Shown here piece after piece: positions 1-13,200 of a DNA stretch of 13,200 nt; position 1 is the first letter of the stretch, and each line of letters opens with the position of its first letter. The translations under genes were made by a program, and so were the position numbers. Location: assembly GCA_014859445.1 (NCBI GenBank), contig JACUUC010000046.1:1-13200 (forward strand), given 5' to 3'. The notes under the pieces were generated by a model. The model saw only the letters and a list, made by a program, of their open reading frames with translations, was not told the origin of the DNA and did no database searches. The stretch is from Bacterioplanes sp. GTDB lineage: Bacteria; Pseudomonadota; Gammaproteobacteria; Pseudomonadales; Oceanobacteraceae.

Positions 1-45
1 AGGCTTCTTTCAGCCTGACGGGTTTGCCAGCTTCGCTGGGCAAAC

Positions 46-80
46 AAAAAAAGCCACGGCACGTATGCAGTGGCTTTTTC
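46..80 (-). terminator. Rho-independent (bidirectional-looking) terminator downstream of fadE
   Basis: Arms AAAAAGCCAC (48-57) and GTGGCTTTTT (70-79) are inverted repeats, with an inner GCA/TGC pairing. On the minus strand the GC stem GCCAC...GTGGC is followed by TTTTTTTGTTTG. It lies about 50 nt after the fadE stop codon (132-134). A further imperfect hairpin sits at 22-44 (GTTTGCCAG/CTGGGCAAAC). Confidence 0.8.
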
Positions 81-131
81 TGAGTGGCGTAGATGACCGA
101 TGTTTATTGAGACAGCGGCATCTTGGCTGCC

Positions 132-2579
132 CTAATCGTTGTGCAACACCACTTTGTCTTTGTGACGTGCAGGTTCATCAAAGGCAAAGTCATCCACAAT
201 CAACATATCCAACACTTCCGCTTCGAAGGTTTTCATAAAGGCGGCTTCGTCTGCACTGATCAAACCGGCTTCGGCTGATGCCGCAAATCGTTCCTCAGGA
301 TGCAATGCCGTCATTGGGATATCACCTTGCGCATACGCTTTGCTGGCTATGCGATAAATTGCTTCGGCTTTGTCGTAATCACGCAACAGCGCGTTGTAAC
401 GCGCCAGCGGATTTTCAACAGCACCGTCTTCTTGCGTGTCCCACGTGTCTTCAATCAAGTAGCTGCGCAAAGGCGTATCACTGGAGATGTCGTTGGCAAT
501 GGCCGACGTTAATTCATCTTCGGGCATCGGCCAGCAACGACCGAATGGCATCACAATGGCGCGTAGTTTGAACGCCACCAAACGATTGGGCAGGTTATCC
601 AGCACACCGCACACGGCATTTTCTAAGCGATGCAGTAAAAACGCCGCGCTATAGCGCATCAGAGCTTCTTCACCGGCCACTTTGTTGCCTTCATGCCAGT
701 GCTTTAACACCATCGAGAGCAAGTACAAGTTTGATAAAATATCACCCAAACGCCCAGACAACAGTTCGCGTTGCTTCAGTGTTGCGCCCAGCATAGTCAT
801 TGCCGCGTCGGACAATAGCCCCAAAACGGCACTGAAACGATTCACGGCTTTGGCATACGGAGCGGCGGCCGAATCAAATGGGTTATCGCCCGTGGGCACA
901 CCCAACGCGGCGGTGAAAGCACGTGCAGCGTTGCCCATGATCAAACCGACATGACCAAAGAAGGCGGTATCGAATGCATCAATGTCGTCGTTGTTCTTCG
1001 CTTCTAACTCCGCCAATACCCATGGATGGCAGCGAATAGCCCCTTGACCAAAAATCATCAAGCAGCGCGTCATGATGTTCGCACCCTCAACGGTTATGGC
1101 CACTGGCGTGGCGGAAAAGCCAATACCCAAATAGTTGCGAGGCCCCAGTGTCACCGCACGACCACCATGCACATCCATGGCGTCCATCATGATTTGACGC
1201 TGAAACTCCGTTAACTGGCTTTTCAAAATCGCCGATGGTACGGCCGGTTTTTCGCCGTTATCAATCATGTTAGCGGTTTGTGAAACCGTCGCTCGGGCGA
1301 TGTACGCCATCGACGCCATGCGCGCAAGCGGCTCTTGCACCCCTTCCATATTCGCCACCGAGGTATTGAACTGACGACGAATGCGGGTAAAGCCACCAGA
1401 CCAACCGACCGCATAGCGACCAGAGCCACTGGCACCCGACGGTAAGGTAATGCAGCGACCAACCGACAAACATTCCACCAGCATGCGCCAGCCTTGGCCA
1501 GCCATATCCACACCACCGATGATCCAATCCAAAGGAATGAAGACGTCCTTGCCTTTGATCGGGCCGTTCATAAACGGACTGCCAATGGGGTGGTGGCGAC
1601 GACCAATTTCCATGCCTTTGGTATCACGCGGAATCAAGGCGCAGGTAATGCCAATGTCTTTTTCCTCGCCCAACAGGCCATCAGGGTCAAACATGCGGAA
1701 CGCCAAACCAACCACGGTGGCAACCGGCGCCAAGGTAATCCAACGCTTTTCAAAGTTAAGACGAATGCCCAGAACCTCTTTGCCGTCAAATTCGCCTTTA
1801 CAAACAATGCCGGTATCCGGAATGGAAGTCGCGTCCGAACCGGCGCGAGGCCCAGTTAAACCGAAACAGGGAATTTCACGACCATCAGCCAAACGCGGTA
1901 AGTAATGATTTTTTTGCTCATCGGTGCCGTACTTAACTAATAACTCGCCGGGCCCTAATGAGTTCGGCACACCGACAGTGGACATCAAGGTTTCATTGGC
2001 GGCCAGTTTTTGTAATACCGCCGATTGTGCTTTGGCGGAAAAATGTAAGCCGCCATATTCGGTGGGAATGATCATGCCGAAGAATTTTTCTTTCTTCAAA
2101 AAATCCCACAATTCTTTCGGCATATCAGCGCGCTCAACGCCAATTTCCCAGGCATTGCACATGGAAACGGCTTTTGAACACTGATTGTCTAAAAACGCTT
2201 GTTCTTCGTCGGTTAACCCCGAATACCGATTATCCAGTAACTGATCCCAATTCGGACGCCCTGAAAACAACTGGCCATCCCAACCCACGGTACCGGCATC
2301 CAGCGCGACTTGTTCGGTCGGTGACACTTTAGGGGCGATTTTTTTGAACAAAGAGAAAATTTTCGGCGTCAACCACGTTTTGCGATACGCGGGCAAACCC
2401 GCCACGGCCGTTACACCGGCTCCTATCAAGAAAAGAATGGCCAACAACGGGCTACTGAAATAAAACCCGACAACCGCCAAGGCAATAAGAGCAGCAATGC
2501 TGGCAACAGCCCCTAACTCTCGTCGCAAAATCGTCAGCATGACGACTAGTGCAATACCAATAACCAACAAGTGATTCAT
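132..2579 (-). CDS. fadE: Acyl-CoA dehydrogenase, FadE type (membrane-anchored, about 815 aa)
   Basis: The track ORF starts at TTG 2597. I prefer ATG 2579 (MNHLLVIG...), which is preceded by AAGGAG at about 6 nt. The N-terminus has hydrophobic TM segments, followed by an acyl-CoA dehydrogenase core (..MIIPTEYGGLHFSAKAQSAVLQKLA.., ..CFGLTGPRAGSD..) and a long C-terminal extension. Length and layout match enterobacterial FadE (about 814 aa). Confidence 0.9.
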   Translation of the reverse strand: MNHLLVIGIALVVMLTILRRELGAVASIAALIALAVVGFYFSSPLLAILFLIGAGVTAVAGLPAYRKTWLTPKIFSLFKKIAPKVSPTEQVALDAGTVGWDGQLFSGRPNWDQLLDNRYSGLTDEEQAFLDNQCSKAVSMCNAWEIGVERADMPKELWDFLKKEKFFGMIIPTEYGGLHFSAKAQSAVLQKLAANETLMSTVGVPNSLGPGELLVKYGTDEQKNHYLPRLADGREIPCFGLTGPRAGSDATSIPDTGIVCKGEFDGKEVLGIRLNFEKRWITLAPVATVVGLAFRMFDPDGLLGEEKDIGITCALIPRDTKGMEIGRRHHPIGSPFMNGPIKGKDVFIPLDWIIGGVDMAGQGWRMLVECLSVGRCITLPSGASGSGRYAVGWSGGFTRIRRQFNTSVANMEGVQEPLARMASMAYIARATVSQTANMIDNGEKPAVPSAILKSQLTEFQRQIMMDAMDVHGGRAVTLGPRNYLGIGFSATPVAITVEGANIMTRCLMIFGQGAIRCHPWVLAELEAKNNDDIDAFDTAFFGHVGLIMGNAARAFTAALGVPTGDNPFDSAAAPYAKAVNRFSAVLGLLSDAAMTMLGATLKQRELLSGRLGDILSNLYLLSMVLKHWHEGNKVAGEEALMRYSAAFLLHRLENAVCGVLDNLPNRLVAFKLRAIVMPFGRCWPMPEDELTSAIANDISSDTPLRSYLIEDTWDTQEDGAVENPLARYNALLRDYDKAEAIYRIASKAYAQGDIPMTALHPEERFAASAEAGLISADEAAFMKTFEAEVLDMLIVDDFAFDEPARHKDKVVLHND

Positions 2580-2806
2580 AGTAACTCCTTTCAGCAATTG
2601 AACTGACTTGAATGAGCTTTGACACTAGCAGGAGATGAGAACAGATGCCAGCTGGCCTAATAAGAAAATACGCCAGAGCAAGTCAAGACACGTTATGTCC
2701 ATAGTCAGAAAATCAAGCCCCACCAATTTATGAGCTATACTGATAAAACTCGGGTTAATGAAATCATCATTCACCCACTGCACTACTCCATGGAGGATCG
2801 TCACGC
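2580..2806. promoter_or_regulatory. Divergent intergenic region between fadE and the small ValRS-C-like ORF (promoters not mapped)
   Basis: This is 227 bp of non-coding DNA between two divergent starts that both have good SD sequences. It contains TTGACA (about 2620) and TATACT (about 2737), but these are not at promoter spacing. I found no convincing FadR- or PsrA-type palindrome. Confidence 0.3.
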
Positions 2807-3028
2807 ATGAGCGCACCGTTAACCAAAACCGATGACATACATCACATCCAGACAAAAATTGAGCGCATCGAAAGCGACATTCAACGCATTACCAACAAAC
2901 TCAACAACGATGGCTTTATCGCCAGAGTGCCAGCGGCCATGATTGAAAATGAACAAAAGAAAATGGCTCAGTTTGAGCGGGAAAAACGCGAACTCGAAAT
3001 ACAAATGCGTTTAATCAGTAACGCTTAA
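2807..3028 (+). CDS. Small stand-alone protein resembling the C-terminal coiled-coil domain of valyl-tRNA synthetase
   Basis: ATG 2807 is preceded by GGAGGA (2792-2797, 9-nt spacer). The 73-aa product contains ..IERIESDIQRITNKLNNDGFIARVPAAMIENEQKKMAQFEREKRELEIQ... This follows the remembered ValRS C-terminal pattern (KL-N-x-GF-x-x-[KR]-AP-x-x-V/I-x-x-E-x-x-K, then a heptad coiled coil). No catalytic ValRS sequence lies upstream. Confidence 0.6.
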   Translation: MSAPLTKTDDIHHIQTKIERIESDIQRITNKLNNDGFIARVPAAMIENEQKKMAQFEREKRELEIQMRLISNA

Positions 3029-3085
3029 ATCCACAGACTATCCTCTAAAAAACATCAAACGAGTTTTACTAAGTCCGTCCGCTCG

Positions 3086-3979
3086 CTACTCCAAAAAGCG
3101 CTGCCGGATAGCCCCGCTGACTGCGGTCAGTGGCACGATGATGCTTAGCTCATAGGCCAAGCCAAAATCCTCATCCAAGGCGGCATCGTCGAACCAGATG
3201 CCGTTGCCCACACTTAAATACGACTGCAAAATGGGCGGCAGACGGCAGCCATAGAGCTTGAGCAGTTGCTGCAACTGCCGGATACGCCCGTCTGGGCTCA
3301 ACTCTGCCCAGCCACGGCACTCCAGCGTATGTGCTACCGCGTAATTCAGGCCGGTTTTTGCCATCATCATCGGCTGCGTCGGGGTATACAGCTGCTGGCA
3401 AAACTGCACCATGCAGGCAATGGCTTCTTGACCCAGACTTTGATAGAGCGAAACATTGCCAAAAAAGTACTGCAGCTGTGGGTGGATACGGGCTAAAGCT
3501 CCCAGCCCGGCCCATAACGCAAAGAAACCCAGGACACGGGCCTTAGCACTGGTATTGACCACCGAACGGCCCAGCTCAATGCCATAGGGCAACACCTGGC
3601 TGCAAAAAGCCTTGCTGTAATCAAACAGCTGGCTGGTACGTAACAAGGCATGGCCATGCTGTGCTGCTTGCCATCCTAACTGGTAGCGGTAAATAGCCAC
3701 CAACTCCAACCTAGCCGGATCCCACACCAGCAACTGGTAATAGGCATGTTCACCATAATCCAGTGCGTCCAGATCACGCGCCAGATTACGGCCGGCACCG
3801 GCACTGCGAAACATCAATTCGCGTAAACGGCCAATCTCCAGCATAGTCACTGGGATCCTATCTGCCTGAGCGCTGAATACCAGCAAACCACGAATGCTGG
3901 CAATGGGTTCAAGCTGTGCCAGCTCCTGTGCAATCAACTTAGTCGGCTCGGCGGCTGCAACTGGGCTTACCATCGGCAT
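3086..3979 (-). CDS. GNAT-family N-acyltransferase, OlsB/GlsB-like ('putative hemolysin' COG3176 type)
   Basis: ATG 3979 is preceded by AGGAGGA at 5 nt, inside the 3' end of the upstream gene (41-nt overlap). Motifs: IGRLRELMFRSAGAG..DLDALD..HAYYQLLVWD...LVAIYRY, and later ..IELGRSVV...LWAGLGAL...YFFGNVSLY. These are typical of N-acyl amino acid synthases that pair with a PlsC-like O-acyltransferase. Confidence 0.75.
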   Translation of the reverse strand: MPMVSPVAAAEPTKLIAQELAQLEPIASIRGLLVFSAQADRIPVTMLEIGRLRELMFRSAGAGRNLARDLDALDYGEHAYYQLLVWDPARLELVAIYRYQLGWQAAQHGHALLRTSQLFDYSKAFCSQVLPYGIELGRSVVNTSAKARVLGFFALWAGLGALARIHPQLQYFFGNVSLYQSLGQEAIACMVQFCQQLYTPTQPMMMAKTGLNYAVAHTLECRGWAELSPDGRIRQLQQLLKLYGCRLPPILQSYLSVGNGIWFDDAALDEDFGLAYELSIIVPLTAVSGAIRQRFLE

Positions 3980-5549
3980 CGGGTTCCTCCTGATAAATAG
4001 TGGGTAGTTGATAGCAACGGCGTTTCAACCAGGCGATACGCTGCCGATCGGTTTCGGCCAGAGCGTCCAGTTCGACGACATGCATCGGAATATCAACATA
4101 CAGTCGAGGTGTACGGTTGGCTGGCTTTAGCATTTCCCGTACCAGCAACAGCATTTCCAGATTGGCCTGAATACCCAGACTGGTTCGTAGCCAGGCCAAG
4201 GTATAGAACCAAGTCGAATTCTGACTTTGCAGATGCAACACGGTCAGACTGCGCTGCTGGCGCCTGGCCAATGTCACCGTCAACTTGGACCAATTGCCAT
4301 CGTCCAACTGACCTTTGTTGCTCTTTCTGGCCGTGCGACCAGCCGGAAAAATCAACAGAGGGGCGTCGCTGGCAAAAGCAGCCTGAACCATTGGCAGCGC
4401 ATCTTTAGGCTTGGCAAATACCGGGATCGACACAATGCGCCCAGCCAGCTGCTGCACTTCGGTCAGTACTTCGTTGGCCAGTACCTGCAAATTTGGATAA
4501 CGCTTTTGCAGTACACTGATCAGCAACAAGCCATCAATGCCACCGGTCGGATGGTTGCAGACAAACACCGGCCGGTCTGCAGCTGCCGGCCAGCGGCAGG
4601 CGATGACGTCCGGAGTTAACTGCAAATGCTGCAGGGCTACATCACAAAAGCGCTCAACCGGCAGCCGGTTGAGCCGCTCCAACCTCTGATTTAACGCCTT
4701 TTCCGCCAACAGCCAGCGCAGCAAATCCCACTGCCAGCCTTTTAGTTGGCTGGCTAGCGTTGGGTTATAGCGGCTAAGCAGGGCCTGCACATCCAACCGG
4801 CTGCTAAAATAGTCTTCGGATACTACAGGCTGTTTCAGCGGCAGTTCCAGGCAGTGGCTGGCATCCACCTGATGGGTGGACGGATGCCCATCCCAATACT
4901 GCATACTAATCTTGCCTGCTTCGATAGTCAGTTGTGTGATACTGACGGTCTGTACCTGGCTACGCTGCATGGCAATGCCGCTAAAGGCGCTGAATGGTCC
5001 GGGCCGGCGATGCAGTTGCTGCTGGGTTTGCAGTGACGGTGAGCGGGCCATAGCCCGCTGCCAATGCCAGGCTCTGAGCCTCGGGATCACCCTAGGTAAA
5101 ACACTGGAACTGGATAACGGCGAGTTTGGTGCCAGCTGCTGACGAAGCTGGCTGCCATCCCAATGCCACAGCAGCGGCTCCTGTTGTCCAACAAAGAGCA
5201 GCAAGCGAAAAGGGGCATAGCAGCGTAACTGCTCTGGTTGCAATGAAGCGTCCAGCATTTGCCAGTCCGAGCTATGCGCCAGTGCCCGTAGAAGCAGACC
5301 ACGACTGCGGCGGATAGCGGCATCCGGCTGATACGCGGCAGCATAATCGTTGAGCAGACAAAACACCCGGCCTTGCTCATTGGCCGCTACCCAGCTGCCA
5401 CCACCGTCTGGATCGATGGGGATGACGGCGTCCACACCGTTCTGACTAAAGCGCTGGGGCGCATGCGCCCGGGCGCGGATTTTTCGCTCATCCCGGTTGA
5501 ACAGGATATGCAGCTGTCCTTGCTGGTACCACCAGCTTAGGGTGCACAT
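3939..5549 (-). CDS. Fusion protein: N-terminal NRDE (TANGO2-like) domain plus C-terminal lysophospholipid/aminolipid O-acyltransferase (GlsA/OlsA-like)
   Basis: Continuous 536-aa ORF. Residues 1 to about 235 carry MC(2)TLSWW...ILFNRDER...DPDGGGSWVA...RSRGLL...YAPFRLLLF, the NRDE family signature with the N-terminal Cys. Residues about 245-520 carry ..WDLLRWLLAEKALNQRL.., CNHPTGGIDGLLL (acyltransferase His/Asp block) and LLIFPAGRTARK (FPxG(T/R) block). The start overlaps the DinB gene by 13 nt. Confidence 0.75.
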   Translation of the reverse strand: MCTLSWWYQQGQLHILFNRDERKIRARAHAPQRFSQNGVDAVIPIDPDGGGSWVAANEQGRVFCLLNDYAAAYQPDAAIRRSRGLLLRALAHSSDWQMLDASLQPEQLRCYAPFRLLLFVGQQEPLLWHWDGSQLRQQLAPNSPLSSSSVLPRVIPRLRAWHWQRAMARSPSLQTQQQLHRRPGPFSAFSGIAMQRSQVQTVSITQLTIEAGKISMQYWDGHPSTHQVDASHCLELPLKQPVVSEDYFSSRLDVQALLSRYNPTLASQLKGWQWDLLRWLLAEKALNQRLERLNRLPVERFCDVALQHLQLTPDVIACRWPAAADRPVFVCNHPTGGIDGLLLISVLQKRYPNLQVLANEVLTEVQQLAGRIVSIPVFAKPKDALPMVQAAFASDAPLLIFPAGRTARKSNKGQLDDGNWSKLTVTLARRQQRSLTVLHLQSQNSTWFYTLAWLRTSLGIQANLEMLLLVREMLKPANRTPRLYVDIPMHVVELDALAETDRQRIAWLKRRCYQLPTIYQEEPDADGKPSCSRRAD

Positions 5550-6028
5550 CGTTTGTGATACTCTTGGGTCGAGCTGTGCACACCGGCATCCTCTGGCCAG
5601 GGGTAGCCCCAGGGATCCAGCATGGCATGGATCAACGCCAGATGATGCACTGCATGGCTGGCAACAAAATCCAGCTCACGCTGCAGGCTGGTGTAGGTGG
5701 TGCCTTCGGCAAATTGATAGCTCAGCTGGGTATCCAGCTCATCGGTTTCCAAGCACTTCAGCCAGCTTTGCAAACGCTCTATCCAATGCAACGCTTTTTG
5801 CGGATCGCTTTGCACGCCTTCATCTCGCAACCGCAGCCGGTAGTCCAGCTGCTGACTGTTCGATGCCAGCCACAGCTGCTGGTAGTGATCCAACACATGA
5901 CGAATATGTTTGCCGACTGAAGGCTCACCGGGCCAGTCTTTGACCTGCCGGTAATGTTCAGGCTGCACCTGCCGTAGAATAAGACGGATAAAGTCCAACT
6001 GGTGCAGGTTTTGTTCAATCACCGTCAT
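5537..6028 (-). CDS. DinB-fold (DinB_2/YfiT-like) putative metal-dependent protein
   Basis: 163 aa. The N-terminal helix motif VGKHIRHVLDHYQQL and the C-terminal FVASHAVHHLALIHAML fit the His-triad pattern of the DinB superfamily. It overlaps the upstream gene by 14 nt and the downstream gene by 13 nt. Confidence 0.7.
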   Translation of the reverse strand: MTVIEQNLHQLDFIRLILRQVQPEHYRQVKDWPGEPSVGKHIRHVLDHYQQLWLASNSQQLDYRLRLRDEGVQSDPQKALHWIERLQSWLKCLETDELDTQLSYQFAEGTTYTSLQRELDFVASHAVHHLALIHAMLDPWGYPWPEDAGVHSSTQEYHKRCAP

Positions 6029-6263
6029 GCGATTCTGTCCTTTGAATGGTTAAATCGTTTAGCCGCTGTTTGGCGGCACTGTAACTGGCGACCGAGAAGG
6101 GCACCAAGTAATTCAGTAGGATCAGGCCAAAGCGCCAGGGTGCTTCACCGGCAATAGCTTCCCATTGATTGATTAGGTTCAGCAAAGTCCCCACCACAAG
6201 TGCCACCTTAATGGCATTGCTGAACACCTCGGGATGGCGTAATTGTTGCAAAAAGTCTTTCAT
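6015..6263 (-). CDS. Small two-TM membrane protein, NrtS-like (putative nitrate/nitrite transporter family)
   Basis: 82 aa. IKVALVVGTLLNLINQ...LILLNYLVPFSVASYSA resembles the remembered NrtS family signature. There is an ATGA start/stop overlap with the HD-GYP gene. The functional assignment is tentative. Confidence 0.5.
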   Translation of the reverse strand: MKDFLQQLRHPEVFSNAIKVALVVGTLLNLINQWEAIAGEAPWRFGLILLNYLVPFSVASYSAAKQRLNDLTIQRTESHDGD

Positions 6264-7183
6264 CCGCGAGCAAACCTGACCAGTTGTTCCAGCGGGATAT
6301 GCGACACCGACTCCTCAATCAACCGCTTAATTAATAGTTTATCTGCTTTAGGTTGCAGTTGCTGGGCCGAAACCTTGCGACCGGTTGGCTTGACCGTCCA
6401 TTGGTCGTGCTCAGCACACAACTCCATCTCGCTGTGACAGACACCACAAGCCAACAGATCACCCGGTTTGTCCTCGCTGTGTTGCAGTACCGTCGGACCA
6501 CAGTGCGGACAGGTGTGCAAGGGAATGCCATAATCACTGTGCCCCATAATGGCATCCACTTCACCTCGTTCAGCCAACGCCAGCAAATGGTTGCACCAGA
6601 ACTGGTTAAACTGTCGGCCGGACTCCTCACGCAGAATACCAAGCACTTTTTCCAATGGCATAGGTTTGCGGTAGGAGCGTAAACTGGTCATGGCATCAAA
6701 GGCATCACATACCCCGATGATGGCCGCATCGGTTGGGATCATGCTGGCAGTCAGGCCATGCGGATAGCCACGACCATCCGGCCGCTCGTGGTGCAACTCG
6801 ACCGCAGCGGCGACCAGATGCCCTAGCGGATGCCCTGCCAGCATGCGGCCACCAGCCTCCGGGTGCGTTTGGATCACAGCAAACTCACTGTCATTCAACT
6901 TGCCGGTCTTATTTAAAATTGCATCTGGGATGGCGACTTTGCCCAGATCATGCAAAAAACCGCCGAGCGTCACCCGGGCAATATCGGCCTCCGGCAAACC
7001 ACCGGCTCTGGACAATAAATTGGCATAACGCGACACCCGCCACAAATGTCCGCCGGTGTAGGGATCTTTGGCTTCCACAAACCAGGCCATCACCATCAGA
7101 CTGGCCAACAGATCTTTGCTTAACTGACCGGCATCCGCCGGTAACGCTTTTTCTGCTTGAAACTGTTGAAACCATCTGAGCAT
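6260..7183 (-). CDS. HD-GYP domain c-di-GMP phosphodiesterase with C-terminal CxxC...CxxC zinc-ribbon extension
   Basis: ATG 7183 is preceded by a GGGGG SD at 5 nt. Motifs: GGFLHDLGKVAIPDAILNKTGKL (HD), HHERPDGRGYPHGL (GYP), VCDAFDAMTSLRSYR. The C-terminal extension carries HTC225PHC228...AC246GVC249HSEMELC256. Confidence 0.85.
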   Translation of the reverse strand: MLRWFQQFQAEKALPADAGQLSKDLLASLMVMAWFVEAKDPYTGGHLWRVSRYANLLSRAGGLPEADIARVTLGGFLHDLGKVAIPDAILNKTGKLNDSEFAVIQTHPEAGGRMLAGHPLGHLVAAAVELHHERPDGRGYPHGLTASMIPTDAAIIGVCDAFDAMTSLRSYRKPMPLEKVLGILREESGRQFNQFWCNHLLALAERGEVDAIMGHSDYGIPLHTCPHCGPTVLQHSEDKPGDLLACGVCHSEMELCAEHDQWTVKPTGRKVSAQQLQPKADKLLIKRLIEESVSHIPLEQLVRFARG

Positions 7184-7210
7184 GATAGCCCCCTGTTAAG
7201 TTAACCCTGC

Positions 7211-7663
7211 TTATCTTTTTGCGTGAATCTTCAAAAGCTTAGCAAAAGACTCCCGCTTGACTGCATCGGCCAGATCATCTTTGCAAAAATACAGCACTGT
7301 ACCAGCCTGTCCGGGCTGGGCTGAACCAATCACCTGGCCAGCGGCAGCAATGGCTGCCGCTGCGTGATGCTGCTGCATCAGATGCAAAATAGTCTTTTGC
7401 ACCCGCTCCAATGGCAGCAAACTGGCAAACACCACCGGCAGGCTTGGCTTAAGCTGACGTATTGCCAACAGCATCTCTTCGGCCGACTGCGGCAGCGGCG
7501 ACGACAAAGCCAAAGAAATAACGGCAACATCGGCGTTGGCCAGTTCGTCATTCAGCGCATCCAGCTGTGACAGACGGTTAAAACTAAAACCCTGCTGCTG
7601 CAGAAAAGGAGCCATCTCACTAACAATAAAAGGATGGGGCCTGGCAAGTAAAATATGTGGCAT
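7211..7663 (-). CDS. Hypothetical protein (150 aa), first gene of the operon; possibly a receiver-like alpha/beta fold lacking the acidic pocket
   Basis: ATG 7661-7663 has TAGGAAAAA upstream, and the gene ends 27 nt before the HD-GYP gene. I recognised no family signature. The alternating hydrophobic strand/helix pattern (HILLARPHPFIV.., DVAVISLAL.., LPVVFASLL..) loosely resembles a CheY-like fold, with Ser where the phospho-Asp would be. Confidence 0.5.
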   Translation of the reverse strand: MPHILLARPHPFIVSEMAPFLQQQGFSFNRLSQLDALNDELANADVAVISLALSSPLPQSAEEMLLAIRQLKPSLPVVFASLLPLERVQKTILHLMQQHHAAAAIAAAGQVIGSAQPGQAGTVLYFCKDDLADAVKRESFAKLLKIHAKR

Positions 7664-7757
7664 GATTTTTCCTAAGGTTGAATTGTAGTTGCATTGTGCT
7701 GCAAACTGCTTAGGCTAAAGGATTCATTAATCTTAGGAAGTTCTGCTGCGTACCACA
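7664..7757. promoter_or_regulatory. Divergent promoter region between the six-gene operon and the AraC-family gene
   Basis: 94 bp between divergent ATGs. It contains a TACAAT -10-like hexamer on the minus strand (7687-7682) and the inverted repeat TTGCA-N6-TGCAA (7689-7704). There are three CTTAGG/CCTAAG copies (7671-7676 inverted, 7709-7714, 7732-7737). Confidence 0.4.
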
Positions 7758-7793
7758 ATGACCAAAACACCGGCCTTATCTACCGAAACACCA
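7753..7793 (+). promoter_or_regulatory. Direct-repeat pair of the ACCAAAACACCG motif overlapping the AraC start codon (candidate operator/activator site)
   Basis: CCACAATGACCAAAACACCG (7753-7772) matches 11898-11917 at 18/20 positions. A degenerate second copy, ACCGAAACACCA, lies at 7782-7793, exactly 21 bp downstream. This is the same spacing as copies 1 and 2 in the bufA/trx intergenic region. Confidence 0.55.
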
Positions 7794-8678
7794 GAAGCCT
7801 TAGAACAGTTATTAGCACAATTGGCTTTTGGCTCGGAGCTGCATTTTGAGTCTGGCTTTTGTGACCACTGGAACCTGCTCACCACCAAATCCAGCAAAGC
7901 AGCCCTTCATGTGGTGACGCAGGGCCAACTTTGGATGGCGATTCCTGGTCGGCTTCAGGAACAAGTGCTACTGGAAGCCGGCGATGCTATTTTTTTCAGC
8001 CACAGTTTCCGGCATTGGCTAAGCGACGAGCCAGTGGATGAACACACCAGCGAAGTCGACTTTGCCAACTTCTGTGTGCCCAATCATGTTGAACGTGGTC
8101 TGGTCTGCTACGACATTGCGGTCGAATCCCCTCTCACCGCCAATCTGTTTCAGGTGATGCCGGACTACATTCACCTGCCTGCCAACCAGCAGTCCGGACG
8201 GCTCAGTCCACTGGTGCAACTAATCCAGCAAGAAGCCAAATCCCGTCAGCCTGGTTATCAGGCGGCTATCAGTCGCTTGAGCGATGTGGTGGTGTTGCAC
8301 TTGTTGCGTCAGGTGCTCAGTGACGACAGCATGCAACAAGGCCTGCTGGCAGCACTAAAAGATCCGGCGCTACGCCGGGTGCTACTGGCCATTATGGATG
8401 AACCGGGCGCTAACTGGACGGTGGAAAGCATGGCCGCTCTGGCTTTTTTGTCCAAAAGCGCCTTTGCCGAGCGCTGCCATAAAGTGATGGCTATGACTGC
8501 AAAAGCCTTGTTGGATAAGCTTAGGCTACAACGCTGCCGTTATCTGCTTATCCATACAGAGCTGAGTCTAGAACTCATTGCCGAACAAATTGGCTATCAA
8601 TCAGCAACGGCATTTATCCGCTTTTTTAAGCAACAAGAAAGCTTATCGCCCGGCGAATTCAGAGCATTGCATAACTAA
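7758..8678 (+). CDS. AraC/XylS-family transcriptional regulator with N-terminal cupin (AraC-binding-like) domain
   Basis: 306 aa. The N-terminal part (ALHVVTQGQLWMAIPG...LLEAGDAIFFSHSFRHWLSD) is cupin-like. The C-terminal dual HTH includes ..WTVESMAALAFLSKSAFAERCHKVM.. and ..LIAEQIGYQSATAFIRFFKQQESLSPGEFR. It is divergent from the 7663 operon. Confidence 0.85.
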   Translation: MTKTPALSTETPEALEQLLAQLAFGSELHFESGFCDHWNLLTTKSSKAALHVVTQGQLWMAIPGRLQEQVLLEAGDAIFFSHSFRHWLSDEPVDEHTSEVDFANFCVPNHVERGLVCYDIAVESPLTANLFQVMPDYIHLPANQQSGRLSPLVQLIQQEAKSRQPGYQAAISRLSDVVVLHLLRQVLSDDSMQQGLLAALKDPALRRVLLAIMDEPGANWTVESMAALAFLSKSAFAERCHKVMAMTAKALLDKLRLQRCRYLLIHTELSLELIAEQIGYQSATAFIRFFKQQESLSPGEFRALHN

Positions 8679-9241
8679 TCGCTGCCAGCTCCTCCTGTAG
8701 CGCGCGCTTCAGACAGTGAAAAGGATTTAACACGCTCAAACGGCAAGTGATCTCCTTCATCGGTACCATAATACGCCATACTAATACGTCCATTGCGGTC
8801 GATAAGAAAATCTGCTGGCATAGTGGTCATGCGGCCTTTGATGCCCAGCGGCAGATAACCGCGCATCATAGCTCTAAGCAGAGTCGGCATGCGTAATAGC
8901 ATGCCCTTCACCACGCCCAGCAGTGAATACTCAATACCGTATTCCCAGTAGAATTGATTGCTCTCATCCGCCAGCACCGCAAAAGGCGCTTTATGACCGC
9001 TCGCATGATGCTGCAGATTATCCAGCGGCGAGTCAAATACCGCGACAATAGTGAAGTCGTCGGCAAATTCATTGAAGCGGGACACTAATTCATGCATGCG
9101 CAGATTGCAAAACGGACAACTGGCAAAGCGAAAGAAAGACAGCATAAAAGGTCGCCCCTCCAGACTTCTCGTGTCAAACAGCTGGCCATCAAGTGCTGGC
9201 AACATGACGTGCGTCAGCTTATCTCCGGGTTGACGTTTCAT
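8675..9241 (-). CDS. Peroxiredoxin-like / AhpC-TSA (redoxin) family protein, CPFC motif, no signal peptide
   Basis: ATG 9241 is preceded by AAGGAG at 7 nt. It has a thioredoxin-fold signature: RPFMLSFFRFASCPFCNLRMHEL...IVAVFDS...FAVLADE...PADFLIDRNG. It is the last gene of the DUF2282 operon. Its stop codon overlaps the stop codon of the convergent AraC gene. Confidence 0.75.
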   Translation of the reverse strand: MKRQPGDKLTHVMLPALDGQLFDTRSLEGRPFMLSFFRFASCPFCNLRMHELVSRFNEFADDFTIVAVFDSPLDNLQHHASGHKAPFAVLADESNQFYWEYGIEYSLLGVVKGMLLRMPTLLRAMMRGYLPLGIKGRMTTMPADFLIDRNGRISMAYYGTDEGDHLPFERVKSFSLSEARATGGAGSD

Positions 9242-9286
9242 GACATAACTCCTTTTAGTAATTTTTAGTTAACTGCAGCTGAAGCA

Positions 9287-9823
9287 TTACGACCGTTTTT
9301 CAAGCCCCAGCCAGCGATCCAGCGAAAACAATCCTGGGCCGCGCGCGAGCAACATCAATAATAATGCCGCCCACCAGGCCGCAGGATTCCAAAAATGTGT
9401 CCAATCCGGATAAACGGCAAATTGAATAAAAAGGGTCATGCCCAGTAAACCCAATGCAGCAAAACGGCTAAATAGTCCCAGGATTAATAGCAATGGCAGC
9501 AGCACTTCCACCACACCTGCAGTTATTGCCATCGTTTCAGCCAGCCATTGGCCGAAAGCGCCCTCAGAGTATTCCAGCGTATCGGCATCGCACAATAACA
9601 AAGCACCGGGCCGAACAGGGTCCGGACAGAAAAATTCGTACATAAAAAGTTCGTATTTATTAACGTCAAACTGTAAAAAGCCATCCCATTTTGACAGGCC
9701 AGATTGTAAGAAAACCCGGGCCACCAACAAGCGCAACGCCAGCAAAGCAAGTGGCTCCAGCCAGCGCTGTAAAAACTGAGCTAATTGGTAGTAACGTGTC
9801 TGAATAGAAGTAACGAAAGTCAT
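9287..9823 (-). CDS. DoxX-family membrane protein (BufD/HvfX/GigT-like component of DUF692 RiPP clusters)
   Basis: ATG 9823 is preceded by AAGGAG at 7 nt. 178 aa with multiple TM helices. LALRLLVARVFLQSGLSKW is a DoxX signature. It sits immediately downstream of the DUF2063 gene (20-nt gap). Confidence 0.8.
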   Translation of the reverse strand: MTFVTSIQTRYYQLAQFLQRWLEPLALLALRLLVARVFLQSGLSKWDGFLQFDVNKYELFMYEFFCPDPVRPGALLLCDADTLEYSEGAFGQWLAETMAITAGVVEVLLPLLLILGLFSRFAALGLLGMTLFIQFAVYPDWTHFWNPAAWWAALLLMLLARGPGLFSLDRWLGLEKRS

Positions 9824-9843
9824 CAGTGGACTCCTTTAAAGCG

Positions 9844-10620
9844 TTAACGTATGCACAGCAGACCATGCTGTAACAACCCGGCAAAGCTGCCGCTGACATC
9901 GAAATGCTCATCCACCCTGAGAGCTGCAGATACCGCATCATGCAGGCAACAAGACTGAGTATTTAAAGCTTGCAGAAAGTGCCATTCTGCGGCAGACAAT
10001 ACCCGATACTGCAATGTATGATCGGCTTGTCGCCATAGCGCCCGACGGTTATGCTCTAAAGCAACCGTCGCCTGCTGCTGATAGCTGGGATCATCACGTT
10101 GCTGTACCCACAATGTCCAAACATCAAAATGCGTTTCAAGCAGTTCAACGCTTGAACACAATCCTAGTTTGAGCTTTTCAATATTGGTTCCCGCGTTGGC
10201 CAAATGCGAGATATCCTCCGCCGAAACTGCTTTTTGATCCTCGGCCAGCAAGCAATTCAGCCAACAACGTTCTAGCCTAGCCAGATCGCTCAACCACGGG
10301 CACTGATGTCGGGGCAACTGCGTTTGCAACCAATCAGGAAATTGCTGACCATACCAGGCCAGCACGGCATGCTCAGGCCGATGAATAAAAACATAATCTC
10401 TGGCCAATTGGCGGAACTGCTCGTCTGCCAACACCGAGCCACTGACAGGAAAGTTGTCAGCTAAAGCCTGCACTGATGCCTTCATGCTGCTGTTGCGATA
10501 CACTTGCAATCGTCGCCAATCTTCAGGTTTAGCTTGTAACCAGTGAGCCAGCGTGGTCTCAGCTTCACCTTGCAAATATGCAATAAACTGCTGATAAAAA
10601 TGAGGCTTAGCCTGCTGCAT
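9844..10620 (-). CDS. DUF2063-family protein (BufC/HvfC-type partner of the MNIO enzyme)
   Basis: 258 aa. The start overlaps the DUF692 gene by 14 nt. The N-terminal QQFIAYL...RLQVYRNS...L.DNFP region is typical of DUF2063. Its position directly 3' of DUF692 is the canonical pairing. Confidence 0.75.
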   Translation of the reverse strand: MQQAKPHFYQQFIAYLQGEAETTLAHWLQAKPEDWRRLQVYRNSSMKASVQALADNFPVSGSVLADEQFRQLARDYVFIHRPEHAVLAWYGQQFPDWLQTQLPRHQCPWLSDLARLERCWLNCLLAEDQKAVSAEDISHLANAGTNIEKLKLGLCSSVELLETHFDVWTLWVQQRDDPSYQQQATVALEHNRRALWRQADHTLQYRVLSAAEWHFLQALNTQSCCLHDAVSAALRVDEHFDVSGSFAGLLQHGLLCIR

Positions 10621-11479
10621 CTGCTATCTCCAGATAAGGTCGCAACACGGCATGAAGCCGCTCTCGCTCATTCAGTAAATCATCCAGAGCAGGAATACGA
10701 TCATCCCACTCCAATAACACGGGCCTCGGACCAAATCGCTGTAAGGCATAATCCAGTAAATTCAGGATGTCTTCTTGTGGTGCGTGATCGTGGCTATCAA
10801 TCAACAAACGATTGCCTTCAACCGGATCGGCTGAAAAACCTGCCACATGCAGCTCACCGACTAAATGCGCAGGGATTTGATCCAAATATTGCTTAGCATC
10901 CACACCACAATTGGTTTGGCTCAGGTATAAATTGGTTATGTCCAGCAACAAACCACAGCCGGTCCGTTGTGTTAACTCCACCATAAAATCAGCTTCATGC
11001 ATTTCATGCTGAAGCCCAACATAGTGGGTGGGGTTCTCGAGCAAAATAGCTCTGCCAATCGCTTCCTGATACTGATGTACTCCGTCCGCTAATTGCTGCA
11101 AGGCTGCCCGAGTTCGTGGAAAAGGCAATAAATCTGCAAAATATGCGTGCTGCACTCCTGACCACACCGCATGCTCAGAAATCAACGTTGGCTGAATGTT
11201 ATCTACCAGTGCTTTAACCCAAGACAGGTACTGAGTGCTGAGGGGTTCCGGCCCACCAAGAGAAGCACCAACACCATGTAGGCTAAGCGGAAATCGTTCC
11301 GCCATCGCCTGCAGAGCTGCCAGCCTAATTCCGCCGATGCCACAATAGTTTTCCGTATGCACTTCATACCAGATCCCTTTTGAAGCAACATCCAGTACCT
11401 CTGGATAGTGCTGAAGCTTAAGGCTTATACCAGTACTAAGCACGGATCCTGGCAGGCTGTTTGCGTTAAAATCTGCCAT
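10607..11479 (-). CDS. DUF692 / MbnB-like multinuclear non-heme iron oxidase (MNIO) RiPP maturase
   Basis: 290 aa. Motifs: GISLKLQHY...WYEVHTENY...PLSLHGVGASLGG...ISEHAVW...DLLPFPRT...AILLENPTHY...GCGLLLDITNLY...GELHVAGF...LIDSHDH...PVLLEWDD. This is the TIM-barrel DUF692 signature. Its start codon shares one nucleotide with the precursor stop codon (TGATG). Confidence 0.9.
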   Translation of the reverse strand: MADFNANSLPGSVLSTGISLKLQHYPEVLDVASKGIWYEVHTENYCGIGGIRLAALQAMAERFPLSLHGVGASLGGPEPLSTQYLSWVKALVDNIQPTLISEHAVWSGVQHAYFADLLPFPRTRAALQQLADGVHQYQEAIGRAILLENPTHYVGLQHEMHEADFMVELTQRTGCGLLLDITNLYLSQTNCGVDAKQYLDQIPAHLVGELHVAGFSADPVEGNRLLIDSHDHAPQEDILNLLDYALQRFGPRPVLLEWDDRIPALDDLLNERERLHAVLRPYLEIADAAG

Positions 11480-11844
11480 CAGGAGTTGTTACGATCCAGT
11501 TCAGATTTCGATGCCTGACCGTGTGGGGTGATGACATACTCGCAAACCCCTCTTGGAGTGAAAGTCCAAGCGTTGCCTTGAAAATCAATAGTTGATGAAC
11601 CTTCACAGCTAGTGCCAGCTCCGGCCCGGCAATCGTTCTGCCCCGCCAGGGCAATGCCATAGCATTTGTCACGGCGGCCCCGTACTCGCTCGCCGGCCAT
11701 CCATGTTTCAAAGTTTTGTTGCACCGCCTCAGGCGCATTTTCTGCCAGGCTAAGTTGAGCATTCGGTCCAGCCTGTGCCACACCCACAGCACTAGCCATA
11801 GCTACACCTGCCAGCAATAATTTGGTTAAGTTAGGTTGTTTCAT
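11479..11844 (-). CDS. DUF2282 / BufA1-type secreted Cys-containing RiPP precursor (bufferin-like metallophore)
   Basis: ATG 11844 is preceded by AGGAGA at about 7 nt. It has a Sec signal peptide ([25 protein letters not shown]|G). The core [43 protein letters not shown] carries four Cys (residues 61, 72, 80, 101; codons at 11662-11664, 11629-11631, 11605-11607, 11542-11544). This matches the DUF2282 pattern. Confidence 0.85.
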
Positions 11845-11897
11845 GTGTATTTCTCCTGTTGTGAATACACTTAAAGTCTAGTCAAGTCGTGCAAGAG

Positions 11898-11938
11898 CCA
11901 CACTAACCAAAACACCGCAGCAATCGACCAAAACACTT
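11898..11938 (+). promoter_or_regulatory. Two direct copies of ACCAAAACAC(CG) spaced 21 bp, upstream of bufA1 (candidate regulator binding sites)
   Basis: Copy 1 is CCACACTAACCAAAACACCG (11898-11917). Copy 2 is ACCAAAACAC (11927-11936). The core starts at 11907 and 11928, so the spacing is 21 bp. The sites lie 54-94 bp upstream of the bufA1 ATG. Confidence 0.55.
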
Positions 11939-11961
11939 TAACTACCACTGAACAAAACGAA

Positions 11962-11974
11962 CCGGTGTTTTGGT
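11962..11974 (-). promoter_or_regulatory. Inverted third copy of the motif (ACCAAAACACCGG on the minus strand), upstream of trx-ccdA
   Basis: The plus strand CCGGTGTTTTGGT (11962-11974) is the reverse complement of ACCAAAACACCGG, an exact 13-mer match to 7761-7773. It is embedded in the imperfect palindrome AACAAAAC-N8-GTTTTGGT (11951-11974) and lies about 91 bp upstream of the trx ATG. Confidence 0.5.
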
Positions 11975-12064
11975 GGATTCAACGGGTGCGGTGGTTAATG
12001 ACGAAAATCCTTATCTCTCTCACACTGGTTGGCGAATCATCCACAACCTGAAGAGGACTTCTTT

Positions 12065-12496
12065 ATGAAAACCATGATTAATGTCGCGATTGCAGTCATC
12101 TCCCTGGCTGCAGCCGCTTTTTTCCTGCTGAGCCCGGCCAATGCTTCCACCGAGCATCTGCTCAAACACAAACAAGCCTTTACTGAAACCTCGTTTCGGC
12201 AAGCGCAAGCTGAAAACCGACTGATTTTGATCGATGTGTATGCGCCCTGGTGCCCGACCTGTCGCCGCCAGCACACCGTTTTAAATGATTATTTTGCCCA
12301 CAACCCCAACAGCGACATCCTGGTGCTGCAAGTGGATTTTGATAACCAGAAAGACTGGGTCACTTACTTCAAAGCGCCACGTCAGTCAACTCTGGTGTTG
12401 TATCGTGGTGAAGAGCAACTTTGGTTCAGTGTGGCCCAAACCCTTGAAAGTACCATCTTTGCCGAACTGAAAAAACACGACCAGGGCGCGGACTGA
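12065..12496 (+). CDS. Secreted/anchored thioredoxin-family protein (WCPTC active site)
   Basis: The track ORF begins at TTG 12029. I prefer ATG 12065, with AAGAGGA (12051-12057) 7 nt upstream. It has a signal peptide (MKTMINVAIAVISLAAAAFFLLSPANA|S) and a thioredoxin motif (LIDVYAPWCPTCRRQ). Confidence 0.8.
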   Translation: MKTMINVAIAVISLAAAAFFLLSPANASTEHLLKHKQAFTETSFRQAQAENRLILIDVYAPWCPTCRRQHTVLNDYFAHNPNSDILVLQVDFDNQKDWVTYFKAPRQSTLVLYRGEEQLWFSVAQTLESTIFAELKKHDQGAD

Positions 12497-12498
12497 TT

Positions 12499-13200
12499 AT
12501 GGAATTTACCGCCATCCCACTGGCACTGATAGCAGGCGTGCTGAGCCTGTTATCACCTTGCGTTCTGCCGATGATACCGGCGGTTACGGCATCGGCCATG
12601 CGGGCATCCAAAACCGGTGTCTGGTTTTTGGCTGCTGGCCTCGCCTTTACCTTTGCTCTGGGTGGCTCTTTGCTGACCTACCTGCTGCTCAGCGCCGGTT
12701 TATCGCCCGATATTATGCGTACCTTTGCCGCAGTCTTTATGCTGGTGATGGGGTTGGTGCTGGTGGTTGGCTGGCTGAATCAGCAATTTAGTCTGCTGTT
12801 GTCACGCCTGACTAGCCGGTTACCTGCTGGCGGCCAGTTGGCAGACTCCTCAGACCGCCCAGTCTTTCAGTTTGTGATCGGTGGCTCTTTGGGCCTGGTC
12901 TGGCTACCGTGCGTAGGACCCACGCTAGGTGCTGCCATTGCGCTGGCATCGACCGGGCAGAATATTCTGATGTCGTTTACCGTCATGCTTGCTTTTGGAC
13001 TTGGTACAGCGCTGCCTTTAGTTGGTATAGGCTATGCCGCAGGCACAAAACTCAGCACCCTTCGCACTTCAGGCAAAGTTGGCAGATTGCTGCTCGGCTA
13101 TGCGTTATTACTGATCGCACTAATGATATTTACCGGCTTTGACAAAGTGATGGAGACGTGGGCTATTAAGCATCTTCCAGACTGGGCAACGACCATATAA
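12499..13200 (+). CDS. ccdA: CcdA/DsbD-family transmembrane thiol-disulfide electron transporter
   Basis: 233 aa and polytopic. The two hallmark Cys-Pro motifs are LSLLSPCVLPMIP and WLPCVGPTLG. It starts 2 nt after the trx stop codon, and the complete ORF ends with TAA at 13198-13200. Confidence 0.85.
   Translation: MEFTAIPLALIAGVLSLLSPCVLPMIPAVTASAMRASKTGVWFLAAGLAFTFALGGSLLTYLLLSAGLSPDIMRTFAAVFMLVMGLVLVVGWLNQQFSLLLSRLTSRLPAGGQLADSSDRPVFQFVIGGSLGLVWLPCVGPTLGAAIALASTGQNILMSFTVMLAFGLGTALPLVGIGYAAGTKLSTLRTSGKVGRLLLGYALLLIALMIFTGFDKVMETWAIKHLPDWATTI

Follow-up and report, generated by a model that had tools for sequence, protein, structure and literature searches.

The molecular function of TANGO2, a protein whose mutations cause severe metabolic disease in humans, is disputed: a heme carrier, an acyl-CoA binder and a hydrolase with an N-terminal cysteine nucleophile (Cys-Ntn) have all been proposed. 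The locus treated here joins a relative of this protein to the synthesis of bacterial amino-acid lipids, for which the closest described systems are the GlsB/GlsA glycine-lipid pathway of Bacteroides (Lynch et al. 2019, as summarised in PMC12971839) and OlsF, a bifunctional ornithine/lysine lipid synthase (Vences-Guzman et al. 2015; PMC12971839). It lies on a stretch of 13,200 nucleotides (nt) from Bacterioplanes sp. (assembly GCA_014859445.1, contig JACUUC010000046.1, positions 1 to 13,200), hereafter the window, in which one gene encodes an intact-looking TANGO2 relative (an NRDE domain) fused to an acyltransferase of the AGPAT superfamily, within an operon of otherwise well-understood chemistry, namely N-acylation and O-acylation. 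The cassette is an undescribed variant of the known GlsBA/OlsF-type aminolipid pathway with two extra components, the NRDE domain and a DinB/YfiT-like protein. Its main value is that of a test system for TANGO2 function, since a puzzle of cell biology could here become a tractable question of bacterial lipidomics and enzymology.

In the literature searched on TANGO2, NRDE proteins, Shewanella TANGO2, AGPAT and aminolipids, neither the fusion nor the DinB pairing is described. Literature matches to NRDE together with DinB concerned only the genes nrdE and dinB, and two aminolipid reviews (PMC12971839, PMC11631085) mention neither NRDE, nor TANGO2, nor DinB. In databases these proteins are labelled plainly as 'NRDE family protein' or 'phospholipid/glycerol acyltransferase'. 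To our knowledge, neither the coupling of a DinB-like protein to NRDE genes nor its fusion to acyltransferases has been described before.

The fusion gene and its place among aminolipid genes

The fusion gene occupies 3939..5549 on the minus strand, on which all features of the window lie unless stated otherwise, and forms a single open frame of 536 amino acids (aa) with its stop codon at 3939..3941. An earlier note on this DNA, made from its letters, had reported one uninterrupted open reading frame (ORF) here; the ORF is confirmed and its strand corrected to minus, a plus-strand reading being excluded by a translation riddled with stops throughout. No in-frame start exists further upstream, so that Met1-Cys2 is the N-terminus. 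Residues 1-245 (4815..5549) constitute the NRDE/TANGO2 domain, hereafter the N-domain, as supported by Pfam, standalone relatives, AlphaFold2 and Foldseek, and residues 257-515 (4005..4781) an Acyltransf_2 O-acyltransferase domain (PF19576). All sequence hallmarks named in the earlier note were found again, with MC at residues 1-2, FNRDER at 17-22, GGSW at 50-53 and SRG at 82-84 of the N-terminal half, and the acyltransferase blocks NHPTGGIDG at 332-340 and FPAGRT at 401-406.

The fusion is most similar (92% identity) to a protein of equal length, 536 aa, from Alkalimonas amylolytica that is annotated as 'NRDE family protein'. The two domains are combined in the same way in Alkalimonas, Arsukibacterium, Alishewanella, Idiomarina, Salinispirillum, Saccharospirillum and Natronospirillum, as well as in metagenome-assembled genomes (MAGs) of Cyclonatronaceae (Balneolota) and Spirochaetaceae. 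When 1.84 billion cluster representatives were searched exhaustively by profile, the full architecture came up in about 35 clusters (50% identity) from Gammaproteobacteria, Balneolota and Spirochaetota. Thousands of matches that ranked below these fusions were standalone proteins, either acyltransferases of about 270-300 aa or NRDE proteins of about 240-260 aa. The NRDE-acyltransferase fusion is therefore rare but old, and spread across three phyla. In a full-length profile scan of genome contigs two fusion loci (L001, L002) were among the matches listed, which were dominated by Bacteroidota GlsA genes.

A frameshift or a lost stop codon, introduced by assembly or sequencing and joining two separate genes, had been named in the earlier note as an objection to the fusion. 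This explanation can practically be dismissed, because about 35 clusters from three phyla show the continuous architecture, and their sequences come from independent genomes and metagenomes. The linker between the two domains is, moreover, alignable across relatives and modelled with a predicted local distance difference test (pLDDT) score of 78-91. No support for such an artefact was found; two shorter entries (P0014, P0016) begin at Met194 but resemble truncated gene calls. An AlphaFold2 model of the whole fusion, built from an alignment of 19 sequences, reached a pLDDT of 91.1 and a predicted TM-score (pTM) of 0.89, and the latter value suggests that the NRDE and acyltransferase domains are packed in a fixed orientation.

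The C-terminal half matches PF19576 with 104.7 bits (cut-off 27, E 5e-30), and the generic PlsC family PF01553 with 20 bits, which is under its cut-off of 23. Its best NCBIfam match is GlsA (NF053697, 160 bits against an equivalog cut-off of 260), and the N-terminal half of OlsF (NF052615, positions 3-266) aligns with it at 111 bits, the cut-off being 620. By these profiles the domain is a GlsA relative, not a GlsA equivalog, and belongs to the type of GlsA and the OlsF N-terminal half, whose substrate class is lyso-aminolipids. The earlier note had called it a lysophospholipid-type acyltransferase; the acyltransferase part of this assignment stands, and in the strict sense it is not a lysophospholipid enzyme. 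Among 69 relatives, those with a decayed N-domain included (see below), H333 of the HX4D motif (H333-D339 in NHPTGGIDG, 4533..4553) is invariant, and position 339 holds Asp in 64 sequences and Glu in 5. In and next to the FPAGRT block (residues 401-406, 4332..4349), G404 and R408 are likewise invariant, and F401 and T406 show conservative changes in a few sequences. Foldseek matched the C-terminal half to the glycerol-3-phosphate acyltransferase 1k30.

The gene directly downstream (3086..3979, 297 aa) overlaps the end of the fusion by 41 nt and encodes an Acetyltransf_5 protein of the GlsB/OlsB type, in agreement with the N-acyl amino acid synthase that had been read there. It scores 169.5 bits against GlsB of NCBIfam (cut-off 300) and aligns with the C-terminal half of OlsF (positions 277-569) at 151.9 bits (cut-off 620). 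As in the GlsB/GlsA system, an N-acyltransferase and a PF19576 O-acyltransferase are thus encoded by adjacent genes, and GlsB and GlsA are the best NCBIfam matches of the two window proteins. However, both scores remain well under the equivalog cut-offs, the order in the window is O-acyltransferase then N-acyltransferase, and the O-acyltransferase bears a 245-aa NRDE domain with a DinB-like gene coupled upstream, neither of which occurs at Bacteroidota-type GlsA loci (0/78). In comparison with OlsF, the halves of the synthase correspond to the fusion C-terminal half and the downstream protein, and the chemistry is predicted to be alike by homology. The two activities reside, in contrast, on separate polypeptides in the window, neither alignment comes near the OlsF cut-off, and OlsF has no NRDE domain.

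Upstream, at 5537..6028, lies a gene for a DinB/YfiT-like metalloprotein of 163 aa, a conserved partner that is absent from the earlier note. Its stop overlaps the fusion start by 13 nt (ATGTGCACCCTAA, 5537..5549), which implies translational coupling of the two genes. DinB-like homologues are found immediately upstream of the fusions in L001, L002, L081-L084, L091 and L097, and the N-acyltransferase gene directly downstream in L002, L081, L082, L084, L089, L091 and L097. The complete order of DinB-like gene, NRDE-acyltransferase and N-acyltransferase is repeated in Salinispirillum, Cyclonatronaceae (Balneolota), Alishewanella, Natronospirillum and metagenome contigs whose sample names (such as 'SL_3KL_010_SED' and 'B1Sed10') we take to denote soda-lake samples. 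A Spirochaetaceae contig carries the DinB-like gene followed by the fusion and ends before any downstream gene. The fusion is accordingly the middle gene of a conserved three-gene cassette.

The NRDE domain and its DinB-like partner

The placement of the N-terminal half in the NRDE family is borne out by profile searches. Pfam TANGO2 (PF05742) matches residues 1-142 with 36.8 bits (cut-off 22.6, E 6e-9), and this match reaches only profile positions 1-149 of 257, about the first 60%. A profile of the N-domain recovered more than 7,000 NRDE proteins, the best of which are standalone proteins of about 242 aa with 28-41% identity. Because these cover 90-100% of residues 1-245, the N-terminal half is, as judged from sequence, a complete short bacterial NRDE domain despite the partial Pfam match. 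M1-C2-T3, R19, D20, E21, R25, D46, G51, W53, N67, S82-R83-G84, W130, R159, R196, T201 and S203 are invariant in 119/119 standalone relatives and are kept likewise in all intact fusions. The conserved Cys2 of the earlier note (codon at 5544..5546) therefore holds for every intact fusion and every standalone relative. Within the NRDE motif (N18-R19-D20-E21, 5487..5498) only N18 varies, between N, S and T, among the same sequences.

In an alignment with human TANGO2, whose sequence was confirmed against PDB 8sv7, Cys2, R19, D20, R25 and R83 correspond to human Cys2, Arg26, Asp27, Arg32 and Arg88. According to crystal structures published in 2026 (PMC13044924), these human residues make up the putative active site, with its nucleophile and catalytic residues, and contribute to a site that binds an anion (sulfate). 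The two proteins thus share the Pfam family, the predicted fold, the Met-Cys start, the NRDE motif and the five aligned residues. They differ in that identity is only about 14-15%, the window domain is about 30 residues shorter, and it has no equivalent of human Lys56, which aligns with D48, or of Asn157, to which we return below. The acyltransferase fusion and the DinB-like pairing belong to the window protein and are not eukaryotic features. The invariant R159 is the likely counterpart of human Lys166 (Lys/Arg), but this alignment needs a 2-residue indel in an unreliable stretch; for the middle of the domain (Asn157, Lys166) the hhalign alignment is unreliable and placement rests on manual anchors.

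In the AlphaFold2 model, beta-strand and helical segments alternate along the N-domain, and the predicted fold is that of TANGO2, with four layers (alpha-beta-beta-alpha). In a Foldseek comparison with the PDB, human TANGO2 ranked first (9bwa, 8sv7; E about 1e-8, probability 1.00, TM 0.54-0.58 per target), followed by acyl-CoA:isopenicillin N acyltransferase (2x1d/2x1e, E about 1e-8) and the bacterial CV2077 (3gvz), and then by penicillin V acylases, bile-salt hydrolases and NAAA. These matches accord with the Ntn-hydrolase-like nucleophile that the earlier note had suggested for Cys2. A profile search of the PDB with the N-domain gave TANGO2 as its sole match (E 0.03), and a single-sequence search gave chance matches only. 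With classical Cys-Ntn enzymes (2x1d/2x1e, penicillin V acylase, bile-salt hydrolase, NAAA, acid ceramidase), whose substrates are N-acyl amides with hydrophobic acyl groups, the domain shares the predicted fold (Foldseek E 1e-8 to 1e-4) and a presumed N-terminal Cys with an Arg/Asp pair shortly after it. Unlike these enzymes, it has no propeptide, the active-site Asn is not conserved and sequence similarity is undetectable. As the cysteine is residue 2 and no upstream start is in frame, its exposure would need simple removal of Met1. NRDE is always the N-terminal domain in the fusions seen, both in those with the acyltransferase and in those with an ATP-grasp domain, a position that fits a mechanism requiring a free N-terminal Cys.

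The DinB-like partner matches Pfam DinB_2 with 31.9 bits (cut-off 24.8). Its AlphaFold2 model, built from an alignment of the 12 close relatives that the homologue search gave, has a pLDDT of 88.6 and resembles the four-helix bundles of YjoA, YfiT, BstA and mycothiol S-transferase (3dka, 1rxq, 3gor, 5wk0; TM up to 0.77). H41 and H125-x3-H129 match the canonical metal triad of this superfamily. The protein nevertheless belongs to a distinct subfamily, in which H41, R43, H44, Y63, R66, R68, R117, E118, H125, H128, H129 and T154 are invariant, R43, H44, Y63, R66, R68, R117, E118 and H128 being additional to the superfamily pattern. The DinB-like proteins of the window, Salinispirillum and Alishewanella end in a common 'CAP' C-terminus, which results from the same overlap with the fusion start. 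No thiol cofactor genes were found near the DinB-like gene.

A DinB-like gene accompanies nearly all fusions. It is missing upstream in one soda-lake fusion lineage (L092-L095), the N-domain of which is about 38% identical; the fusion ORF of one of its members (L095) has 11 additional codons ahead of Met-Cys. In two proteins (P0188, P0189) a DinB-like domain is fused to the same acyltransferase in place of NRDE, and in the first of these (L089, 208-2606) the N-acyltransferase gene comes next. The DinB-like gene is thus a steadier companion of this acyltransferase than the NRDE domain itself.

The pairing extends to NRDE proteins without an acyltransferase domain: the closest standalone genes of this kind also have a DinB-like gene bordering on their start. 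We surveyed 80 metagenome loci retrieved by the NRDE profile, 68 of which had sufficient upstream sequence. A DinB-like ORF is directly adjacent to the NRDE gene in 48/68 (gap -15 to +106 nt), lies within 2.5 kb in a further 8/68, at about 0.6-1.8 kb upstream, and is absent in 12/68, the soda-lake fusion lineage among them. Such a partner is therefore present for about 80% of the standalone NRDE relatives in this sample, and the DinB-NRDE pair looks like a widespread two-gene module. In a locus with a distance of 1.7 kb (L161) the intervening gene (3345-4997) combines a membrane (VTT/DedA-like) domain with an ATP-grasp domain of the RimK/TTL/cyanophycin-synthetase type. Homologous ATP-grasp genes adjoin the NRDE gene in 32/80 loci (within L092-L171), and ATP-grasp is fused C-terminally to NRDE in P0031, P0037 and P0039. 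The ATP-grasp domain carries or follows a membrane (VTT/DedA-like) segment in L161, L088 (2626-4348) and P0031, and one may speculate that it is a head-group extension module for aminolipids, e.g. dipeptide lipids.

OlsF-like bifunctional synthases lie 1-3 kb from DinB-NRDE pairs in Vibrio rumoiensis (L088) and in three metagenome loci (L110, L114, L155). In V. rumoiensis (2626-8578) seven genes on the same strand encode a VTT-domain protein, an ATP-grasp protein, the DinB-like protein, NRDE, a YHS-domain protein, a 178-aa protein and, last, the OlsF-like synthase, which scores 434 bits against a cut-off of 620. Fusion of NRDE to the acyltransferase, fusion of DinB to the acyltransferase, and adjacency of DinB and NRDE beside OlsF-like synthases are three independent lines of evidence that connect the components. 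The split loci also lend independent support, at the level of sequence, to a connection of NRDE with the synthesis of N-acyl amino-acid lipids.

Possible roles of the NRDE domain

The cassette most likely makes an acyloxyacyl ('piggy-back') amino-acid lipid. By homology, the downstream N-acyltransferase would join a 3-hydroxy fatty acid to an amino acid to give a lyso-aminolipid, the 3-hydroxyl of which the C-terminal PlsC-superfamily domain (H333/D339, FPAGRT) would esterify with a second fatty acid, as its likeness to GlsA and the OlsF N-terminal half suggests. We tentatively prefer, at somewhat less than even probability, a reading in which this pathway is combined with an accessory acyl-thioester chemistry of Cys2 in the N-domain. 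The activity of this domain we infer from sequence, predicted structure and gene context, and its substrates would be acyl thioesters or lipids, as had been proposed from the fusion itself. Methionine aminopeptidase, which removes Met1 ahead of a small residue such as Cys, would strip Met1 and leave Cys2 as a free N-terminal nucleophile that could accept a fatty acyl group as a thioester. The N-domain would then cooperate in cis with the O-acyltransferase, and the DinB-like partner would take part as well.

Two sources of this acyl group are conceivable, to which we give about equal weight. On the one hand, it may be released from the amide linkage of the N-acyl amino acid, whether intermediate or product, so that the domain would act as an amidase or transacylase in editing, remodelling or transacylation. 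Reactions of this type are carried out by bile-salt hydrolase, NAAA, acid ceramidase and penicillin acylases. Bile salts, too, belong to the N-acyl amino acids, and the carboxylate of such a compound could be held by the Arg-rich pocket of the N-domain. On the other hand, the acyl group may be taken up from an acyl-CoA or acyl carrier protein (ACP) donor and handed to the acyltransferase, as in acyl-CoA:isopenicillin N acyltransferase. The latter possibility fits human TANGO2, in which the NRDE motif mediates the binding of acyl-CoA (PMC11867700). Loss of TANGO2 raises lysophosphatidic acid (LPA) and lowers phosphatidic acid (PA), i.e. affects the AGPAT step (PMC10042531).

Several observations weigh against a catalytic N-domain in an aminolipid pathway. 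Nine fusion lineages (P0023, P0180, P0181, P0183, P0185, P0187, P0191, P0192 and P0193), which are not mentioned in the earlier note, lack Cys2, the NRDE motif, SRG and most of the conserved N-domain residues and retain intact acyltransferase motifs; one of them (L091) still has the DinB-like gene upstream. In two further proteins (P0165, P0173) the N-domain is partly decayed, and in P0188 and P0189 it is missing altogether. From these lineages we conclude, on sequence grounds, that the N-domain is accessory to acyl transfer and not required for it, and that its catalysis would be dispensable for the lipid pathway. Human Asn157 aligns with the conserved active-site Asn of classical Cys-Ntn enzymes, and the window domain has no Asn at this position but a conserved Ser-Ser/Thr motif at 146-149, an exact equivalence being unfixed as the alignment is unreliable here. 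Both window acyltransferases score under the GlsA and GlsB equivalog cut-offs of NCBIfam, so that the head group is not assignable. An NRDE or DinB-like gene lies within 8 kb of none of the 78 Bacteroidota-type GlsA loci, which rules out a general NRDE-GlsA neighbourhood in Bacteroidota. Finally, we know of no demonstration of hydrolase activity even for human TANGO2.

The main competitor, which we consider rather unlikely, is a non-covalent role: the N-domain would bind acyl-CoA or acyl-ACP at the membrane and pass the donor to the fused O-acyltransferase, free of hydrolytic or transacylase chemistry, as has been proposed for human TANGO2. The NRDE-dependent binding of C16:0- and C18:1-CoA by the purified human protein, its lack of any lysophospholipid acyltransferase (LPLAT) activity (PMC11867700) and the defect at the LPA-to-PA step after its loss, which has been read as a shortage of available acyl-CoA (PMC10042531), all agree with such a role, the more so as the domain is fused here to an AGPAT-superfamily enzyme. 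The conserved arginines R19, R25, R83, R159 and R196 could bind the phosphates of CoA, and the persistence of the acyltransferase in lineages with a decayed N-domain is expected if the latter merely improves donor supply. Mere binding has, however, no need of the invariant Met1-Cys2-Thr3 and the strict N-terminal position, both of which predict a nucleophile, and the nearest structural relatives in Foldseek all are enzymes of covalent catalysis. It also leaves the near-obligate DinB-like metalloprotein partner unexplained. A structural role, heme trafficking and the artefact discussed above are successively less likely.

An improbable view is that the N-domain is mainly structural or regulatory, serving, for example, membrane docking or the assembly of DinB-like protein and acyltransferase, so that the conserved residues would reflect an ancestral function unused in the fusion. 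The nine lineages that retain a domain of similar length with decayed catalytic residues would fit this view, as would the ability of a DinB-like domain to take its place at the acyltransferase N-terminus and the rigid packing predicted by the pTM of 0.89. Strict conservation of the full catalytic set in the window lineage and in most fusion clusters (30-92% identity) argues instead for ongoing selection. It is very improbable that the N-domain is a heme-binding or trafficking module and its fusion to the acyltransferase unrelated to lipid chemistry. Bacterial TANGO2 homologues have indeed been reported as heme-trafficking proteins (PMC10470608); one of them, HtpA (SO0126) of Shewanella oneidensis, is a member of the same family, but a standalone cytoplasmic protein for which that report mentions no acyltransferase or DinB context. 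Heme binding to TANGO2 was non-specific in the crystallographic study (PMC13044924), none of the cassettes examined contains heme or cytochrome-maturation genes, and the recurring partners are lipid- or amide-forming enzymes.

The preferred reading, an accessory Cys2 chemistry within the aminolipid cassette, can be extended to a broader proposal that we regard as doubtful. The short bacterial NRDE protein and its near-obligate DinB/YfiT-like partner would constitute a so far unrecognised two-component enzyme system whose targets would be the amide or thioester bonds that hold fatty acyl groups in amino-acid lipids of the membrane. This system would plug into PlsC/AGPAT-type acyltransferases, by fusion here and by proximity to OlsF in other genomes, or else into ATP-grasp ligases of the RimK/TTL-like kind, anchored in the membrane, which would extend the head group. 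If this were true, TANGO2-family proteins would be genuine Cys-Ntn enzymes, of acyl transfer or amide hydrolysis, in the service of AGPAT-type acyltransferases. The LPA/PA phenotype seen in human TANGO2 deficiency would then be explained, and a bacterial assay for it would be gained.

Flanking genes and hosts

The fusion hosts (loci L001, L002, L091-L095 and L097 together with the protein relatives) come mainly from alkaline or saline settings, such as Alkalimonas, Arsukibacterium ikkense, Natronospirillum, Cyclonatronaceae and the soda-lake sediment or soil contigs. The cassette variant thus appears to be concentrated in bacteria of such habitats, a pattern taken from organism and sample names.

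In the window three genes precede the DinB-like gene: an 82-aa NrtS-like gene (6015..6263), an HD-GYP gene (6260..7183), which overlaps its same-strand neighbours, and a 150-aa gene with no assigned function (7211..7663). As they overlap or almost abut, the genes of 6015..7663 may extend the operon in this genome, and the HD-GYP gene may be co-transcribed with the cassette. They are not kept with the cassette elsewhere, being absent from L081, L082 and L084. Genes of cyclic di-GMP metabolism stand beside the cassette in other genomes as well, with a GGDEF-EAL gene in Salinispirillum (L081, 8582-10393) and a GGDEF gene in Alishewanella (L084, 7539-8744). A gene for an AraC-type regulator (Cupin_6 and HTH_18; 7758..8678, plus strand) is divergent and a candidate regulator of the cassette; in the Alishewanella locus an AraC-type gene is directly divergent from the DinB-like gene, and it is the only one of these neighbours that Alishewanella has too. 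On the other side, 489 nt downstream of the cassette, lies a FadE-type acyl-CoA dehydrogenase gene (132..2597; NF007000, 1005 bits), which we dropped as a cassette member, since its adjacency is not conserved in L081, L082 and L084.

Further from the cassette, a bufferin-type cluster for a ribosomally synthesised and post-translationally modified peptide (RiPP) extends over 9287..11844. It comprises a precursor of 121 aa with a signal peptide and several Cys (11479..11844), the MNIO maturase BufB (10607..11479; 312.9 bits, cut-off 310), a DUF2063/HvfC-like protein (9844..10620) and a DoxX protein (9287..9823). An AhpC/TSA-family peroxiredoxin-like protein is encoded at 8675..9241. Two ORFs on the plus strand (12029..12496 and 12499..13200) resemble, by position and size alone, the thioredoxin-DsbD_TM pair beside the AraC-type gene of Alishewanella (L084). 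Together with the peroxiredoxin-like gene, they would place redox genes on both flanks of this region.

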